From Savitreella phatthalungensis (taxonomy: Eukaryota): a DNA stretch of 64,000 nt. A model generated the notes under the pieces. It was given only the letters and a program-made list of their open reading frames with translations, ran no database searches and was not told where the DNA came from. Position numbers and translations under genes: made by a program. Positions 10,519-18,521 of the stretch are shown piece after piece; position 1 is the first letter of the stretch; each line of letters opens with the position of its first letter. The DNA lies in the NCBI GenBank assembly GCA_051599415.1, contig AP039699.1:1-64000 (forward strand). The letters run 5' to 3'.

Positions 10519-13500
10519 CTAAGATGAGGACGTGAGGCGCCGGATAATCTCTTGCCTGTCGTCCTCGGACATGGCAAGCAGAGTGTTGCTCATGCCGTCA
10601 AGGACACCAGTTTTGTTGTGCTTCAGGGCCTTGGCAACTCTCGAGAACATGTCTTGTACGGCGAGATGGCCGTTATCTGCTTCAAGGCGTGCAATGATCT
10701 GCTTACTGTCGCGTTCCAGCCAGCCAGCGATCTCGCGATCATCATGTTCCCAGTCAGCGCTGCCGCTGTTGCTCTCCAGATACCATCTGAAGAGCTTTGC
10801 AGACTTTTGCGCGTATCCGCCTGCGTCCATCTTGTTAATGATGTAATGCTCGTTGAGGCGTCTGCGTATGCGCCAGTAGAAGAAGCGTCGAGCATTACGC
10901 CACTCCAAGGCCTTCCGAATCGTGCCCTTCGCCTGCATGCGCCCCGCCCGATCGTGCAGATCCGCGAACTGAATGCTGATTTGCTGGTATACAGGCATCA
11001 GCATTTGCTCTCGCTCCTGAAGCTTCACCTTGAGCTCTGGAATCTGCGAATCGCCCGCATCGCATAGGTCGAGTTGCCGTTTGAGGGACGCGTATGATTG
11101 GTCCAGCCGAGACATGGTCTCGAGCAGCTTTTCTCGTCGGAATTTGATGCCGACGATGCCTTCTGGCTCCAATACACCAGCGCGGGAGTCGACATCGGCA
11201 TACATCTCCATCATGTCTGGGTTGATTGTTGGATCAACAACGACCCAGGAGCCGCCTCGAAGCTCACCGAAAGGCGGGATGTAGACGAAAATAGGCTGTT
11301 TGTAAGCGACCAGTGCATCGACGATATAAGACCCGTACTTCAGCACTTCGTTGAACATGTCGCGCTGCCCGCCGGAGAATCCTCGCCAGTTTGCCAAGAT
11401 CATCAATGGTAACTGCTCGCCGTGATTGAAGTCGTTGATAGCTTGAGCAGTCTTGAATGCTGAGTTAGGGTACCAGACCTGCCCTGCCTCCATAAATAGC
11501 TGCTCGGTACTTTCCGGATTCGCCGGATCAGCAGGCACGACGTTCTCGACAGACCGCGTCTCGACTGCGATGACTCCCATAGGAATACCGCCGAGACGAG
11601 CACGGCCGACGACAACAGTGCGAGCCCAGCCTCCGAGAGATTCCTGGAAGGAGTCTCTGTCGAAGAGACCGCTGATGAACGTCCCGTCAGTCTCAACTCC
11701 GCCGATCAGGTGGCGCACATCGTACGCGCCCTTAGGTGGCGCGAAATCAATGTCGCGGTCCCAGGAGTCGCTGTGAACGAGGGAAATGGGTACCGGGGAT
11801 CCGCGCTTGTCCGGCACGAACGAGAGCCACTTCACGATGCCAGCCACGCCATCGAGGTCGTCGCGTGCTGTGATGTGCGATACACCGTTCTTGTACATAA
11901 TCTGAGTTCCTCCAAGCTGCAAATTTGATGCGTAGACCTCGCGTCCCAGAAGCTTGTTTATTGCAGGAGCTCCGGTCAAGATGATGGGTTGTCCTTCGAC
12001 TTGCACAGCACGCTGACCGAGGCGAACCAAATAGGCGCCAATACCGACGGAGCGGCACGTAACGAGAGTGCAGGTGAAGATGTCCCTGTAAGCGCGTGAT
12101 GTCTCGCCGGCGATGAGACCCGAGCCGCGCAGACATTCGACGCCGAGGCCATCCTCGGCGCCAATGATGGTATTAATGCGGAAACGCGTCTCACCGTCAT
12201 CCGTGACTGGCTCAGTGATGACGTCTTTGCGGCCCGTCTGTTGGAGCTGTCTTTCAACGTCTGGTGTAAGATAGAGGTACTTGAAGCCCTTGTCGGGATT
12301 CGACGGATCATGCCATGCGACCGAGAAGAGCGGGATGAGCTCTTCAGCTATGCCGATACGTGCCCCAGAATTGGCTGAAAGGTAAATACGCGGAATGCCA
12401 AGCTTGCGTGCGAGTTCCGTCGCCTTGTGGAAATAGCGGTCTTCCTGTGGGCCGAAGCTACCGATCTTGTAGGTAATGTCGTTGGCGACTAGGATCATCC
12501 GGCGCCCCTTGGGATACTCCGGTGTTTTTGCCACACAAAGCCATGCCACCATGCCGATATTGTTAGTTCCGGGCTCACGAGACACCTCCTGCAGGACGCC
12601 TTGGTCGTCAAGCACGAGCTCTCGGGCGACAAAGATATCCTCGGGCACACCAGCGGCAGCGCCGTGTGCAATCGCTCGAGTCCATTCGTTCCGGATTGCT
12701 TGCCTGAAAAGCTCCTGGAAGTCGTAAAGATAGGTCGTTCCCATAAGATGAGCTTTGTAACGCTTTGGTTGCAACCATTCTTTTGTCGGGTAGGGAGTGG
12801 TGATGGGTCTGAGATGCATCGAGCCATTGGGGCCGATCGATTTGAAAATCCACTTGCCGTTTGTGTCTTTCACCTCCGCGTACAGCTCAATCTTAACGAC
12901 AAAGCCAGAGACATTGGAAATAATCACACGCAGCGGGAATGCAATGCCTGTGGAAGAGTCTGTGCACATGATTCGCACCTCACAGCCTGTGACGCGAAGG
13001 CGCCAAAGTCGGCGACCGAACCGCTCGAGGAAGCCTCCAAGGGCTGCTTCGACCATATCTGGCTTGAGATCGACAAACGTTTGAGTGAAAAAGATGTGGA
13101 TGTGATTGAGATCAGTGTTCTCCGTTCCGATGATCTCGAGTGCATCAAGGATGTCGTTGACGAGCCTGTCGGTCTCGGAGATGAGGTACTCAGCAGCCGG
13201 AATGTCCGCCCGCAGACGTCCAGGTCGCACAATAGCTCGGGTGAAGAAACGCTGATCTGTTGGCGCTTTCTTGGCGGTCGCCTTGTAGACGTGGACATTG
13301 TGATTGCCCGTAAACACGGGATTGATGTCGAAGTTCGACAAACGGCCAAGCTCGAGCTGAAAGGCGAGCGCCGGCTCGATATGACGAATACTTTGATCCT
13401 CAACGTATTCGGTGCTGCGCTGTTCGCGGAAATAGCCAGGATGACGGAACGTGAAATACGATGGATAAGACTTGCCTTCTCGGCCGACGAGGAAAGTAAT

Positions 13501-16500
13501 GCGTCGCACACCGTTCTTGAGCAAGTCCTGCTGATTGACCTTCAGAATGGGACGGACGTATTGTAGGAATGCCTCGTCGTCCATGTCACGATCACGAATG
13601 GCCACATTCAACACATTGACAAGCTCCTCTGGTCGCGTCTTGATTTCGATAGCCGCCTCGGATTTTTGACCGCCGATTGTCGGCATGTAGTCGTCCTCGT
13701 CGTCCTCGTCGGCGGGCGTGTTTCCGGGCCTTCGCGGTCCGTCACCGTTCAGGTACAGCTGATTTCCCAAAGCTTCTATCGCGCGGGGCAACTGCTCCTC
13801 GACATCGTCGACAGAAGCACAGGGCACAATCGCACCTACCCTGATAGGCTCGCTTGCGCTTTTAAAGAATGTCAGGTCGCTGATCGACATGACGCGGGAT
13901 ACGCGTCGCGCAAAGTCATCATTGCTTTCGCCGTCGCGTGGAGTTGCAGGTGTCTGGGTGCCCGTTAGCGCCCCTGGGCGCGATTCGCTGCGTAATTGGA
14001 AGTCCCATGTCAGGATGAAGGGCGACTCAGTTTCAGTCACGTAATTCAGTCCGTGGAGTGAATAGGCCCGATAAGCACGGCGTACGTAGACTTCCAGAGC
14101 GGCGAGTGCAACCCAGGGATCATGTGATGCGAAGAAGATCGGCAAGACGTCGAAAACTGTGAAGCGGGAGTCGATAAGCTCGCGCAGCATCTCTTCGTTC
14201 GGCGAGCGGTGTGAAGAAGTTTGCTCCCCGTAGCGTGAGTCAACCACGGACGATTTGAGGATATGCTCCATCTGGCTAGCGCGTTCTTGCACTGAAGGCA
14301 GACTCGACTGAATAAGGATTTCACGAGCCTTCAGGGCGACCTTCGCCGTGGCTCGGGATTCCAGTTCGGCAAGGCGCTTCAGGATGATACCAAATCCACG
14401 CGAAACATCGCCGGTACTCGTTCTCACAACCTCAAGTATCGCAAGGACGAGATTGTTCTTGGACCCTACGCGTGAGTGTGAGAGAGACATTTGTACGACC
14501 TTTCTGATATCGTCCTTGTTCTCCTCGCGCAGTTTCAAGATGACGTCTTCGTGCCTGTTGTTGCCAGTGAAGAGCGATTCGACATGCCAATACGATTCGA
14601 GCAGGCTGTTCATGACGGCAATCTCATGTGCTTGCAAACCACCCTTGTAGCGTTCCAGAACTGCTATGAGAGGGCTCAGTGCAGCGCGTGTTAATTCGGC
14701 CTCTTTCGCGTTCATTGACTCTCTCAAAAACGTCTCTAGAGTCCTGAGAAGAGCCTTTGCTGGGAATTCGAGTTTGCGAGTGGCCGCTTTCTCAACTTGA
14801 CCTTGGAGCATAGCCTCGAGCTTCGATGGCATGCGACTCGCAAGAGCAGCATGTATTGATGCCCATTCACCAAAGGGCAACTCCGGATTGCGCAGAACCT
14901 CGACGAGCTCTTTCAAGGATGCGCTCATGACAATCTGATTGTCGAAGCCATTCAAAATGTTTTGCAGGATATTCAGCAGCAACGGAAAGCGTTGGGAGGG
15001 ACGGTCACCGACAATTTGAGGAGGCTTCCACGCGGGAAACTGACCTTCAAATGGCTTTGCATGCTTTACACGTGAAGGATCGTCAAGCTGCAAGACGCCC
15101 AAAATGTCGCCGGCCTCCAGCGAAGCGCCTGGTTGCTTGATCAGGTTGACAGTGCCGTCCTCGAGTGCCACAAGAGGCATGATCATCTTCATGACCTCGA
15201 CTTCGGCATACGGCTGACCCGCCTTGATGGTCTCCCCCGAGTCGACGAGGAATCGGACCAATTTGCCTGGCGATGGACTCCGCAGCTGCGTCGGATCGTT
15301 TTCCTGCTCGAGCAAGCATGTCTTGCTGTCCACGGACATGCGAGTCGAGCCGACCTCTTCACGCCAATATACCGTGTGGCTCCGACCGTCCAGAAGTACC
15401 AGGAGACCGCCATCTGAAAGGGTACGGACGCCGACGGTGCATTTTGAACCATTCAAGAAGAGATGGTACGCATCGAGACTCGCACGTGTGGCGGTAAAAC
15501 GGAAGCGCTCTCCCTCATAAATGAAGTCCACTGGAAACACAGTTTTCAGCACATCCTTCCCCGGAACCTGGCCGCGCTCGAGTGAGACTTGGTACTCGGA
15601 AAGACCCGCCTCACTGGCCAGGTGAGCCTTTGTTATTGCGCCACAAACGACTGCAAGCATGGTGTCCGGCCGCTCAGCCGTCAGTCGAGCGCTGATGAGG
15701 TCGTCCAACCACGCCGTCGTGATAGCGTTGTCCTCAAAAGCGGGTGTCTCGAGCAGCTTGATGAGATATTCGACTGTTGTTTTGAAATCGCCGCGGATGG
15801 ACAGCTCTTTGAGCGCCACAACCATGTTCTTCCGACTCGCGCTACGATTCTCTCCGAAGGCAAAGATGTGACCAAATTGGGAATCAGCGAATTGATGAAT
15901 GCCACCAGCTGTTCCGACAGAAAAGTAACCCCAGACATTGCTCGAAGAACGGAAGTTCAAATCTGTGAGCATACCAGAGGAGGGTTTGAAGCCCGCACCA
16001 GGATCTTCCGAGGTGATACGGCATGCCGTTGTGTGGCCCTTTGGAGCAGGTCTGCGCTGTGTCTTGTGGCTCTCCGAGTCCGTGAAATCGAAGTCAATCG
16101 GTGTAGCGAGCTTTGGATCAACGCCGTAAAGCAGTCGAATATCCTTGATGCGATGCAACGGCAAGCCCATCGCAATCTGCAGCTGCGCCGCTGGTAAGTT
16201 GACACCTGTGACCATCTCCGTAGTCGGATGCTCCACCTGGAGACGCGGATTCAGCTCCAGAAAGTAGAACTTGTCGTCCGCATGGGAATACAGGTATTCG
16301 ACAGTGCCTGCAGAGACGTAGCCAACGAGGCGCCCAAGACGCACAGCTGCTTGCTCCATGGCTGTGAATGTTTCTGGTTTCGCAATCGTAACCGGGGCCT
16401 CTTCAATTATCTTTTGATGCCGTCGCTGGACCGAACAGTCGCGTCCGAACAGTGAGATGTTGTTGCCATATTGATCCGCGAGCAGCTGTACTTCGAGATG

Positions 16501-17319
16501 TCTAGCGCTGTTTGCAAGTTTCATAATGAAGATGGGCGAGCCTGGGACTTCGGCAGCCACTTGGTCATACAGCGATTTGAAATTCGCTTCATTCTCAACC
16601 TTGCGAATACCTTTGCCGCCACCACCCTCTGAAGCTTTGATCATGACCGGAAAGCCTATCAAGCGAGAACGCGACAATCCTTCGTCCGCGTCATGAGTGC
16701 AAGCTTTGTGATAAATCTCGTCTGCGACCGTCACGATCCCTTTCTCATCGACAAGGACTTCACTGACGCCTGTGCCGGACCAGCCCATACAGGGAACCTG
16801 TGCGCTCTGTGCAACAATCGTAGATGAAATCTTGTCTCCCAGAGAACGCATGGCCGAACCAGGAGGTCCAATGAAGACTATGTTGTGTTTTGCCAGGGTC
16901 TCCGGCAGCCGTGGGTTCTCCGATGCATGTCCCCAGCCGGCCCAGACAGCGTGTACCTTGTAACGGATGGCGACCTCTACGATCAGATCCACGTTAGCAT
17001 AATTGTTGTTATTCGACCCCCCAGGAACTTCGACAAACTCATCAGCCATGCGAATGTAGTCGGCATTGACAGCAAGATCTTCGGGGGTGCACATGACGGT
17101 GAACTGGACAGCTCGCTCGTCATTGAACTCGTCGTAGGCCCATTTGCGAACAGAGCGAATCTCTTTCACCGCGGCAATGCCGTTGTTGGCAATGAGGACT
17201 TTGGTGATGACGGTGTGTCCGTCGTGTTTCTGGACGAAATCACGCACAGGAGAATTACTGGCAGATTCGAGCGAGTTGAAGCCGTAGAAATGATCGGCCA
17301 GCTTGGTTAGCGACGCCAT
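10519..17319 (-). CDS. ACC1: Acetyl-CoA carboxylase (multidomain BC-BCCP-CT)
   Basis: KVLIANNGIAAVK, RDCSVQRRHQK, biotin motif EVMKM, CT motifs ANWRGFSGGQ, and Snf1/AMPK-type site SRVMSISDL. First ATG is 17319, with an in-frame upstream extension (see findings). Confidence 0.98.
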   Translation of the reverse strand: MASLTKLADHFYGFNSLESASNSPVRDFVQKHDGHTVITKVLIANNGIAAVKEIRSVRKWAYDEFNDERAVQFTVMCTPEDLAVNADYIRMADEFVEVPGGSNNNNYANVDLIVEVAIRYKVHAVWAGWGHASENPRLPETLAKHNIVFIGPPGSAMRSLGDKISSTIVAQSAQVPCMGWSGTGVSEVLVDEKGIVTVADEIYHKACTHDADEGLSRSRLIGFPVMIKASEGGGGKGIRKVENEANFKSLYDQVAAEVPGSPIFIMKLANSARHLEVQLLADQYGNNISLFGRDCSVQRRHQKIIEEAPVTIAKPETFTAMEQAAVRLGRLVGYVSAGTVEYLYSHADDKFYFLELNPRLQVEHPTTEMVTGVNLPAAQLQIAMGLPLHRIKDIRLLYGVDPKLATPIDFDFTDSESHKTQRRPAPKGHTTACRITSEDPGAGFKPSSGMLTDLNFRSSSNVWGYFSVGTAGGIHQFADSQFGHIFAFGENRSASRKNMVVALKELSIRGDFKTTVEYLIKLLETPAFEDNAITTAWLDDLISARLTAERPDTMLAVVCGAITKAHLASEAGLSEYQVSLERGQVPGKDVLKTVFPVDFIYEGERFRFTATRASLDAYHLFLNGSKCTVGVRTLSDGGLLVLLDGRSHTVYWREEVGSTRMSVDSKTCLLEQENDPTQLRSPSPGKLVRFLVDSGETIKAGQPYAEVEVMKMIMPLVALEDGTVNLIKQPGASLEAGDILGVLQLDDPSRVKHAKPFEGQFPAWKPPQIVGDRPSQRFPLLLNILQNILNGFDNQIVMSASLKELVEVLRNPELPFGEWASIHAALASRMPSKLEAMLQGQVEKAATRKLEFPAKALLRTLETFLRESMNAKEAELTRAALSPLIAVLERYKGGLQAHEIAVMNSLLESYWHVESLFTGNNRHEDVILKLREENKDDIRKVVQMSLSHSRVGSKNNLVLAILEVVRTSTGDVSRGFGIILKRLAELESRATAKVALKAREILIQSSLPSVQERASQMEHILKSSVVDSRYGEQTSSHRSPNEEMLRELIDSRFTVFDVLPIFFASHDPWVALAALEVYVRRAYRAYSLHGLNYVTETESPFILTWDFQLRSESRPGALTGTQTPATPRDGESNDDFARRVSRVMSISDLTFFKSASEPIRVGAIVPCASVDDVEEQLPRAIEALGNQLYLNGDGPRRPGNTPADEDDEDDYMPTIGGQKSEAAIEIKTRPEELVNVLNVAIRDRDMDDEAFLQYVRPILKVNQQDLLKNGVRRITFLVGREGKSYPSYFTFRHPGYFREQRSTEYVEDQSIRHIEPALAFQLELGRLSNFDINPVFTGNHNVHVYKATAKKAPTDQRFFTRAIVRPGRLRADIPAAEYLISETDRLVNDILDALEIIGTENTDLNHIHIFFTQTFVDLKPDMVEAALGGFLERFGRRLWRLRVTGCEVRIMCTDSSTGIAFPLRVIISNVSGFVVKIELYAEVKDTNGKWIFKSIGPNGSMHLRPITTPYPTKEWLQPKRYKAHLMGTTYLYDFQELFRQAIRNEWTRAIAHGAAAGVPEDIFVARELVLDDQGVLQEVSREPGTNNIGMVAWLCVAKTPEYPKGRRMILVANDITYKIGSFGPQEDRYFHKATELARKLGIPRIYLSANSGARIGIAEELIPLFSVAWHDPSNPDKGFKYLYLTPDVERQLQQTGRKDVITEPVTDDGETRFRINTIIGAEDGLGVECLRGSGLIAGETSRAYRDIFTCTLVTCRSVGIGAYLVRLGQRAVQVEGQPIILTGAPAINKLLGREVYASNLQLGGTQIMYKNGVSHITARDDLDGVAGIVKWLSFVPDKRGSPVPISLVHSDSWDRDIDFAPPKGAYDVRHLIGGVETDGTFISGLFDRDSFQESLGGWARTVVVGRARLGGIPMGVIAVETRSVENVVPADPANPESTEQLFMEAGQVWYPNSAFKTAQAINDFNHGEQLPLMILANWRGFSGGQRDMFNEVLKYGSYIVDALVAYKQPIFVYIPPFGELRGGSWVVVDPTINPDMMEMYADVDSRAGVLEPEGIVGIKFRREKLLETMSRLDQSYASLKRQLDLCDAGDSQIPELKVKLQEREQMLMPVYQQISIQFADLHDRAGRMQAKGTIRKALEWRNARRFFYWRIRRRLNEHYIINKMDAGGYAQKSAKLFRWYLESNSGSADWEHDDREIAGWLERDSKQIIARLEADNGHLAVQDMFSRVAKALKHNKTGVLDGMSNTLLAMSEDDRQEIIRRLTSSS

Positions 17320-17914
17320 CGTTTTTGATCGCTTCTGTATCGACAATGTCGGAGCGGTAAATTTGGCCGCAGTACTCAATCGACAACAAGCAATCGAACG
17401 TCTTTTCAGGAATTGTCCGCTCGTCTTCTGCCTGAGGATTGCTCGCGATAAACTTGACTGGTGAGCCCTCGTTTTCTAAAGTGAGCACTGGTGCTGTCGC
17501 GACGGACTGCGAACGGCACAAGAAGAAAAGGGTGTCGACGATATCTGACCGGGTTCGTGCGGTGTCAAGTGGCAGGGGCAAGCGTAACCCGAGTTGTCGT
17601 GGTATTAGGCCCGCTGGCGCGCGAATGAATGTCGATGGAACAAACCACTTATCGGCTTGATCGTTGAGAATCTATATCCCACCGCAATTAGCCTCCACGC
17701 GTCATGGCTGAATCGAACTCGCAGATCGTCTTGGGGATGACAGAGTTGGGCCAAAGAAATTTGATCAAACAGCTGATCAATGCAGGTAAGGATGGTGGGA
17801 CGGGTGAATGCCATACGTGCATATTTTAACCAAACCCTGACAAAGATGTGAGCAAGTCAATTAATGGGCTAATCACTGAGAGTTACTGATTACCCTGAAG
17901 TATTAACTATACAA

Positions 17915-18521
17915 TCAGCGAGCTCGGATCTGACTATATTTTTCCTGTCTTGTCTTGAGCTTCTGCTGTCTCTTACTCAGAGTATCTTGTCCAGACGCGG
18001 CTGGATCTGTCGCAGATGAGCTCATGCGTCCATCAGCATTTGCGCTCGTGCGGGCAGATACAACGCTACGGATGTACGGCCAAATTTTGACCACAGCGTA
18101 GCAAGGAATCTATATGTGTCAGTTTCCGGTAATGGATGAGCTCCCTGGGACATACCAGCAGATATAAAGTCCAGGCGTAGTCAGTGACAGCGGCGACAAG
18201 GGCGAATACAATCCAGGTGAGATAGATGAAGTCGAACAGATACTCGGTTACTCCCGCTTGTGAAAGATCATCCCCCGGAGATAACAAGGTCCCGTCGGGC
18301 GCGAAGCAAGGTTTTCCGATACGTTCAAGTTGTAGTTGAACCCCGATTGCGACAATGTTGGTTAGGAAGTAGAGTGCGAAGGTCTTCTTGTTGGTCGAGC
18401 CATATTGCCAGACTAGTCGGATAAGGATGAAGGCGAGATTGATGCAGGCTGCGATCTTGCGCATGCCAGCTATCTTGGTCGCATTGTTCTTCGCCAGTTG
18501 CTTTTCTGCTTGTCGCGCCAT
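17915..18521 (-). CDS. SND2: SRP-independent targeting protein 2 / TMEM208, 2 exons
   Basis: Motif G.DL...G.TEY.FD.IY.TW. Intron 18110-18155 (GTATGT..CTGAC..TAG) yields a C-terminus ...SKRQQKLKTRQEKYSQIRAR*. Confidence 0.9.

Follow-up and report, generated by a model that had tools for sequence, protein, structure and literature searches.

Introduction

Mitochondrial fatty acid synthesis requires a supply of malonyl-CoA in the matrix. Among budding yeasts, rescue of an hfa1 deletion by the acetyl-CoA carboxylase (ACC) of K. lactis depends on the upstream region of that gene, and upstream mitochondrial signals are predicted for several single-ACC yeasts, according to PMC4263661. The same source places the start of S. 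cerevisiae HFA1 at an AUU at −372, in agreement with a first-pass annotation of the DNA analyzed below, which had cited the non-AUG start of HFA1 as established; its Table 4 is confined to Saccharomycotina. Near-cognate initiation also underlies dual targeting of alanyl-tRNA synthetase (AlaRS) in S. pombe, as well as in S. cerevisiae and C. albicans, and Cryptococcus LeuRS starts at ACG, as given in the main text of PMC7049704, in which the word 'carboxylase' does not occur. A yeast-wide survey (PMC6582344), an earlier one-gene proposal (PMC2704937), and a peroxisomal parallel (PMC7214817), each cited for the portion relevant here, bear on the same question. No report of an ACC leader in Taphrinomycotina was found in the literature searched, which leaves aside most subscription journals as well as supplements, where further species may be listed.

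Here we analyze a 64,000-nucleotide stretch of the Savitreella phatthalungensis genome (assembly GCA_051599415.1, contig AP039699.1, positions 1 to 64,000 of the forward strand; hereafter the window). A basic reading frame devoid of ATG codons lies directly above its ACC gene, and our reading of the sequences is that this single gene probably makes both the cytosolic and the mitochondrial enzyme.

Results

Features of the ACC locus are collected in Table 1. The ORF contains all seven ACC Pfam domains and thus encodes a complete ACC, and the product read from its first ATG is predicted to be the cytosolic form. The database copy of this protein (P0001, 2266 aa) begins at the same ATG; the corresponding Met aligns with a Met of 13 relatives and lies upstream of the biotin carboxylase domain. 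No conserved ACC sequence above the first AUG, a feature of the HFA1 type, was found in the alignment with these 13 relatives or among the Pfam domains. As a separate observation on this intronless gene, similarity stops or fades at the WAGW motif (near 16933) in most of these 13 relatives, which are fragments, and in a protein of Pneumocystis, which suggests that an intron was lost here from the S. phatthalungensis gene.

Table 1. Positions of features at the ACC locus (window coordinates).
Feature	Position	Strand	Remarks
Acetyl-CoA carboxylase CDS	10519..17319	-	2266 aa, intronless, read from first ATG
First ATG	17317..17319	-	A at −3, G at +4; context score 1.44, upper quartile of 252 ORFs
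ATG-less in-frame leader	17320..17472	-	51 codons; 12 K/R, 0 D/E; predicted mitochondrial presequence and linker
R-L-S-T in leader	17371..17382	-	
CTG	17407..17409	-	Alternative near-cognate start
Second ACG	17422..17424	-	A at −3; alternative near-cognate start
First ACG	17470..17472	-	Most upstream near-cognate codon; leading candidate start
In-frame TAG	17476..17478	-	Bounds leader; also candidate 3' splice site
Branch-point-like GCTCAC	17481..17486	-	Branch A lies 6 nt upstream of the final G in the TAG at 17478-17476
Pyrimidine tract	17520..17532	-	
Five-codon uORF	17688..17705	-	Strong-context ATG; present in any unspliced transcript begun above it
ATG, one codon, then GTATGG	17811..17822	-	Sole ATG exon with a donor in phase for the candidate 341-nt intron
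SND2/TMEM208-family gene	17915..18521	-	Upstream of ACC; probable 46-nt intron 18155-18110

The first-pass annotation had described a cryptic presequence above this gene, and its account of the leader stands. When the minus strand is re-read from TAG-AAA-ACG (17478-17470), the frame is open through the 51 codons to the ATG at 17319, the ACG carries an A at −3, and ATG is absent from the leader in all frames. Counted over the codons that follow the ACG, the claimed 12 K/R and complete lack of D/E were obtained again; S, L, and A, of which the leader was said to be rich, make up 19 of its 51 residues, and the cleavage-like R-L-S is found within R-L-S-T, which we take to resemble an R-2 cleavage site of the mitochondrial processing peptidase (MPP). 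The pyrimidine tract upstream may be a core-promoter CT element or the polypyrimidine tract of an intron. A second frame without ATG extends for about 138 codons over both the leader and the start of ACC (17671-17258, minus strand); it is acidic and probably a product of chance.

To gauge how unusual such a leader is, its 153 nt were shuffled 20,000 times with dinucleotide content preserved. Open frames were retained in 3,166 shuffles, only 5 of which also lacked D/E, and 4 of those carried at least 12 K/R. We also compiled 252 ORFs of at least 300 aa with an upstream stop in view, drawn from 864 kb (the window and 80 further stretches) of the 12.7-Mb genome. A strict test of leaders (ATG-less and in frame, at least 40 codons, K/R at least 20%, D/E at most 2%), whose thresholds were chosen after the candidate had been seen, is passed by ACC alone, and a looser composition test by 5 of the 252; in net charge the ACC leader ranks second. 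The composition of the leader goes beyond chance.

These figures bear on whether the leader is translated at all. It could instead be a 5' UTR or promoter that holds a chance frame or a relic presequence, with mitochondrial malonyl-CoA coming from another enzyme. Length by itself is unremarkable and agrees with that account: the median ATG-less leader in the sample is 15 codons long, and at least 52 codons are reached by 32 of 252. The amphipathicity is weak, since the best 11-residue hydrophobic moment (0.54) lies below that of 9 of 10 comparison leaders, and 83% of shuffled versions of the peptide attain it; the candidate was, moreover, chosen post hoc from a genome-wide scan. Other carboxylases are present in the genome, as are 13 AMP-binding matches, among which there may be a malonyl-CoA synthetase. 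Against an untranslated leader stands the joint composition, which only 4 of the 20,000 shuffled sequences and a single one of the 252 ORFs attain, on the very gene for which published work predicts this feature; similar extensions occur in two relatives (below), and an unused frame would be expected to collect stops and acidic codons. We judge an untranslated leader unlikely, though it is the weightiest of the alternatives considered here. RNA folding of 17560-17320 is ordinary (z 0.08).

The low moment, together with a cluster of K/R near the end of the leader, would also suit a translated segment with a different function, such as membrane or nuclear targeting or control of ACC output; the N-terminus of mammalian ACC2, for example, anchors that enzyme to the outer membrane. 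The leader contains no hydrophobic segment, however, and its composition is like that of matrix presequences of the same genome and of budding-yeast ACC leaders, so that such a role appears very improbable. On balance, the leader is quite probably a genuine mitochondrial presequence.

Nine near-cognate codons, the ACG at 17472 and eight others on which the first-pass annotation is silent, are distributed along the leader. A context model built on the 252 first ATGs of this genome, which is noisy because some of these ATGs are not true starts, scores the ACG at 17472 at −1.33, the ACG at 17424 at +0.83, the CTG at 17409 at +1.15, and the ATG at 17319 at +1.44. The first-pass interpretation is upheld in part, and its specific start at the ACG at 17472 stays a reasonable conjecture: this codon has its A at −3 and is the leading candidate, but its context falls below that of the second ACG and the CTG. 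It lies one codon below the TAG, and the 16 codons that separate it from the next ACG are basic and acid-free, which suggests that those codons are used. Initiation at some near-cognate codon upstream of the ATG at 17319 is moderately favored; the ACG at 17472 in particular is a serious candidate whose use we hold to be somewhat short of probable, and several near-cognate starts may share the work. Two upstream ATGs were rejected as leader starts. That at 17814 is in the ACC frame and runs into a stop after 68 codons, that at 17705 after 5, and each is without a consensus donor.

The first-pass annotation had also named a case that would keep the presequence and give it an ordinary AUG start, in which the TTTAG ahead of the leader is a splice acceptor for an upstream ATG exon. 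A candidate for such an exon can be read in the sequence. Two codons beginning at the ATG at 17822 could be spliced over a 341-nt phase-0 intron (17816-17476), the cytosolic form then arising from a promoter within the intron or by leaky scanning. The join would place Met-His in frame on the leader, the ATG at 17822 has an A at −3, and between 17940 and 17300 no GT-type consensus donor other than the GTATGG at 17816 was found. The branch-like GCTCAC, which the first-pass annotation does not mention, is of a kind that precedes 2.9% of 13,796 TAGs, and branch signals are enriched at TAG-bounded ORFs (10 of 68, against 7% of all TAGs), with 2 of those 10 resembling true introns. A comparable 5' intron may lie above a long ORF elsewhere (L155:1445-1935, plus strand), with a GTAAGA donor and a GCTCAC branch. 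At 491 nt, this putative L155 intron far exceeds the other introns seen.

What the spliced structure lacks is a good fit to the introns of this genome, which is intron-poor and whose real-looking introns span 43-54 nt with GTAAGT, GTAAGA, or GTATGT donors. After GTATGG donors there is no enrichment of CTAAC (1 against 1.7 expected) or CTGAC (9 against 9.0), and no excess of CTCAC branches follows four strong donors (24 against 26.9). A nearer branch and TAG (17692-17672) would compete and yield a different frame, and the 11-mer at the candidate acceptor recurs in L159 within apparent coding sequence. From the SND2 stop it is 92 nt down to the ATG at 17822, and about 440 nt to the ACG at 17472; of 73 tandem gaps 3 are below 100 nt, whereas gaps of about 440 nt are typical. 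Finally, in the relatives P0339 and P0219 the extensions are contiguous with the ACC core. We therefore regard a spliced AUG exon as improbable, more so than an untranslated leader, and retain near-cognate initiation as the preferred reading. The 361 candidates of the heuristic intron finder are mostly false and served as leads only. An intron class suggested by a seeming excess of CTCAC 6 nt from the AG (10 of 24) was dropped, most of 63 such sites being without a donor within 90 nt; a bacterial promoter scan was set aside as inapplicable to a fungus.

A tree of 30 proteins places the window's ACC and P0002 outside Pezizomycotina plus Saccharomycotina (SH-aLRT 100). This tree, obtained by a quick method with one long outgroup and no named Taphrinales protein, points to a basal, Taphrinomycotina-like position among ascomycetes. 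By searching for shorter proteins and consulting a cluster, we gathered 13 fragments; together with the window's ACC and P0002 they make up a clade supported at 100/99 (126 columns). Basic, acid-poor N-terminal extensions are seen in 2 of the 13: P0339 has 66 contiguous residues above the conserved Met (11 K/R, 1 D/E), and P0219 has 28 (4 K/R, 0 D/E). For the other 11 and for P0002, the call begins at the downstream Met. Because P0218 shares the core of P0339 and yet is called from the lower Met, the remaining 11 calls say little. P0342 bears an acidic addition of 9 residues.

We assume from the behavior of gene callers that the first residue of P0339 and P0219 may represent ATG, GTG, or TTG, and their extensions thus do not demonstrate non-AUG initiation. 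The leader of the window is not significantly similar to the extension of P0339 (p 0.97) or of P0219 (p 0.18), nor are the two extensions to each other (p 0.22), a lack of conservation that an untranslated leader would account for. An apparent match between the first residues of the leader and P0339 was likewise not significant and was discarded. A Neolecta protein annotated as partial lends weak support; its Met is preceded by 38 residues (5 K/R, 1 D/E). Protein searches with the leader gave no match covering it among the best 120 of 869 and the best 120 of 451, and when 1.84 billion representatives were searched with a profile, the best 150 held no further member of the clade.

Eighty metagenome ACC loci, whose lineage labels denote resemblance to named proteins, included no member of the clade (best identity 79%). 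About 41 of the 80 could be read in one frame from the Met to the conserved motif; the others, with introns in that interval, were dropped. Of the budding-yeast-like loci, L026 has an ATG-less leader of 52 codons with 10 K/R and L027 one of 46 codons with 9 K/R, five other loci (L014, L029, L031, L036, and L042) have AUG-started ACC presequences, and the leaders of three loci like S. cerevisiae ACC1 are 6-18 codons long. The strict composition test is passed by none of the 11 intronless contigs that resemble Pezizomycotina, L011 coming close. Two further observations concern single loci. A TTG in the L026 leader corresponds to the initial Met of the related P0217, so that P0217 either has a TTG start that was called as Met or differs from its relative by an AUG/UUG switch, and on the basidiomycete-like ACC contig L034 the ATG-less leader runs to 23 codons, with 5 K/R and no D/E.

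A search of the genome with the ACC protein returned 9 matches, one of them full (ACC itself). The partial ones, named by reading their sequences, are pyruvate carboxylase, two other biotin carboxylases, and carbamoyl-phosphate synthetases. Of 3 matches to the carboxyltransferase family, 1 is ACC. The check for a second ACC gene proposed at the outset was thus negative in both searches, and the assembly, which may be incomplete, holds no HFA1-like second gene. Stand-alone MCT1-like, CEM1-like, and LIP5-like genes for mitochondrial fatty acid synthesis (mtFAS) and lipoate synthesis are present, and a supply of matrix malonyl-CoA is accordingly needed. Two further acyl-CoA carboxylase pairs occur in the genome. 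In one region (L002, L195, L131; G000:C2, ~908.8-915.0 kb), subunits of a biotin carboxylase and a carboxyltransferase are encoded head to head, the former with a PTS1-like AKL at its end, and the gene for the biotin ligase comes immediately after them; this group is a small acyl-CoA carboxylase cluster, possibly peroxisomal. The biotin ligase leader (L131, minus strand) has 16 codons with 2 R and no D/E.

Leaders of a similar kind occur on tRNA synthetase genes of this genome. AlaRS is encoded by a single gene whose ATG-less, in-frame, presequence-like leader has 66 codons, 9 K/R, 1 D/E, and 12 near-cognate codons (L130:1255-1452, plus strand). CysRS has an ATG-less leader of 65 codons (13 K/R, 3 D/E) above an AUG-started basic segment (L197; G000:C4, above 694700, minus strand), and in GlyRS and ThrRS, named by reading the sequence, two in-frame AUGs flank a presequence-like segment. 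Elsewhere, L187 (G000:C13:87372-92084) is a 1313-codon open frame with a start like folylpolyglutamate synthase, named by reading, and a class I tRNA synthetase match; it is either two genes without an intervening stop or a fusion.

Discussion

The analysis directly establishes the open frame, its composition, the single copy of the gene, the presence of mtFAS genes, and similar extensions in two relatives. That one gene gives rise to cytosolic and mitochondrial ACC, as first proposed, is well supported by the single ACC, the non-random composition of the leader, the extensions in two relatives, and the ATG-less leader of AlaRS. In the mechanism that we infer, the transcript would begin between the uORF at 17705 and about 17480 and would have an unspliced 5' region. 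Most ribosomes would initiate at the strong ATG at 17319 and produce cytosolic ACC, and a minority would initiate weakly upstream, most likely at the ACG at 17472 and otherwise, or in addition, at the ACG at 17424 or the CTG at 17409. Upstream initiation would add a basic, acid-free presequence of 30-51 residues, which would carry the long form into the mitochondrial matrix and would probably be cut near the R-L-S-T. Matrix ACC would then supply malonyl-CoA for mitochondrial fatty acid and lipoate synthesis.

If this mechanism is correct, database protein P0001 omits a mitochondrial isoform, and there is an explanation of where this lineage obtains its mitochondrial malonyl-CoA. A published budding-yeast mechanism would also be carried across the deepest split in the Ascomycota, which is testable in fission yeast and Pneumocystis, for which the literature searched gave no such report. 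Dual targeting of ACC may be ancestral to the Ascomycota or may have been reinvented, and we put forward only tentatively, as a history that may well prove wrong, one in which near-cognate initiation was kept here and in budding yeasts, was lost or its task otherwise solved in filamentous ascomycetes, and has switched with AUG initiation even within the clade of the window's ACC.

The first-pass annotation had presented the mechanism as extended to a distant ascomycete lineage. The distance is borne out by an ACC that falls outside both Saccharomycotina and Pezizomycotina, but the mechanism itself is already published for single-ACC budding yeasts. The closest precedent is the single ACC of the K. 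lactis type and not HFA1, so the mechanism is less new than had been implied; what is new here is the basal, Taphrinomycotina-like lineage. As a mechanism already known from Saccharomycotina ACCs, it is plausible and useful to the specialist and not surprising.

Other described systems share parts of the arrangement. Dual-targeted aminoacyl-tRNA synthetases combine a leaky near-cognate start, a presequence, and a strong AUG, the layout also found in AlaRS of this genome; they are a different enzyme with ribosome profiling support in the main text of PMC7049704, whereas the ACC start proposed here is predicted from sequence. ACCs of CTG-clade yeasts and Yarrowia, as entered in Table 4 of PMC4263661, likewise carry a presequence in frame above the conserved Met, as do the five AUG-started metagenome loci named above, but theirs starts at AUG, and the window has no unspliced in-frame AUG. 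In S. cerevisiae HFA1 a non-AUG upstream start adds a mitochondrial signal to ACC, as proposed here; yet HFA1, as described in the relevant sections of PMC4263661, is a dedicated duplicate that depends on its AUU and has ACC-like sequence above the annotated ATG, in contrast to one gene with a complete product from its ATG.

The nearest counterparts are the ACCs of K. lactis (KLLA0F06072g), K. waltii, A. gossypii, and P. pastoris, each listed in that part of PMC4263661 as a single ACC gene with an ATG-less in-frame upstream region, as here. There, a mitochondrial signal is predicted upstream and a downstream AUG gives the cytosolic form, which is the layout proposed for our locus. Those genes are from Saccharomycotina, and that of K. 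lactis is backed by the hfa1 rescue experiment; the gene described here lies outside Saccharomycotina and Pezizomycotina. The protein search with the leader found no sequence similar to it among the best 120 of 869 matches. Three features of the K. lactis type are clear at this locus, namely a full multidomain ACC read from the first AUG, a sole ACC gene in the assembly, and a stop-free, AUG-free leader with near-cognate codons. As to presequence character, the charge and the lack of acidic residues fit whereas the hydrophobic moment does not exceed that of shuffles, and as to retention in relatives, extensions are seen in 2 of the 13 clade fragments, with no similarity in sequence. By analogy, the S. 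phatthalungensis gene would work like the single-gene ACC of K. lactis and not like HFA1.
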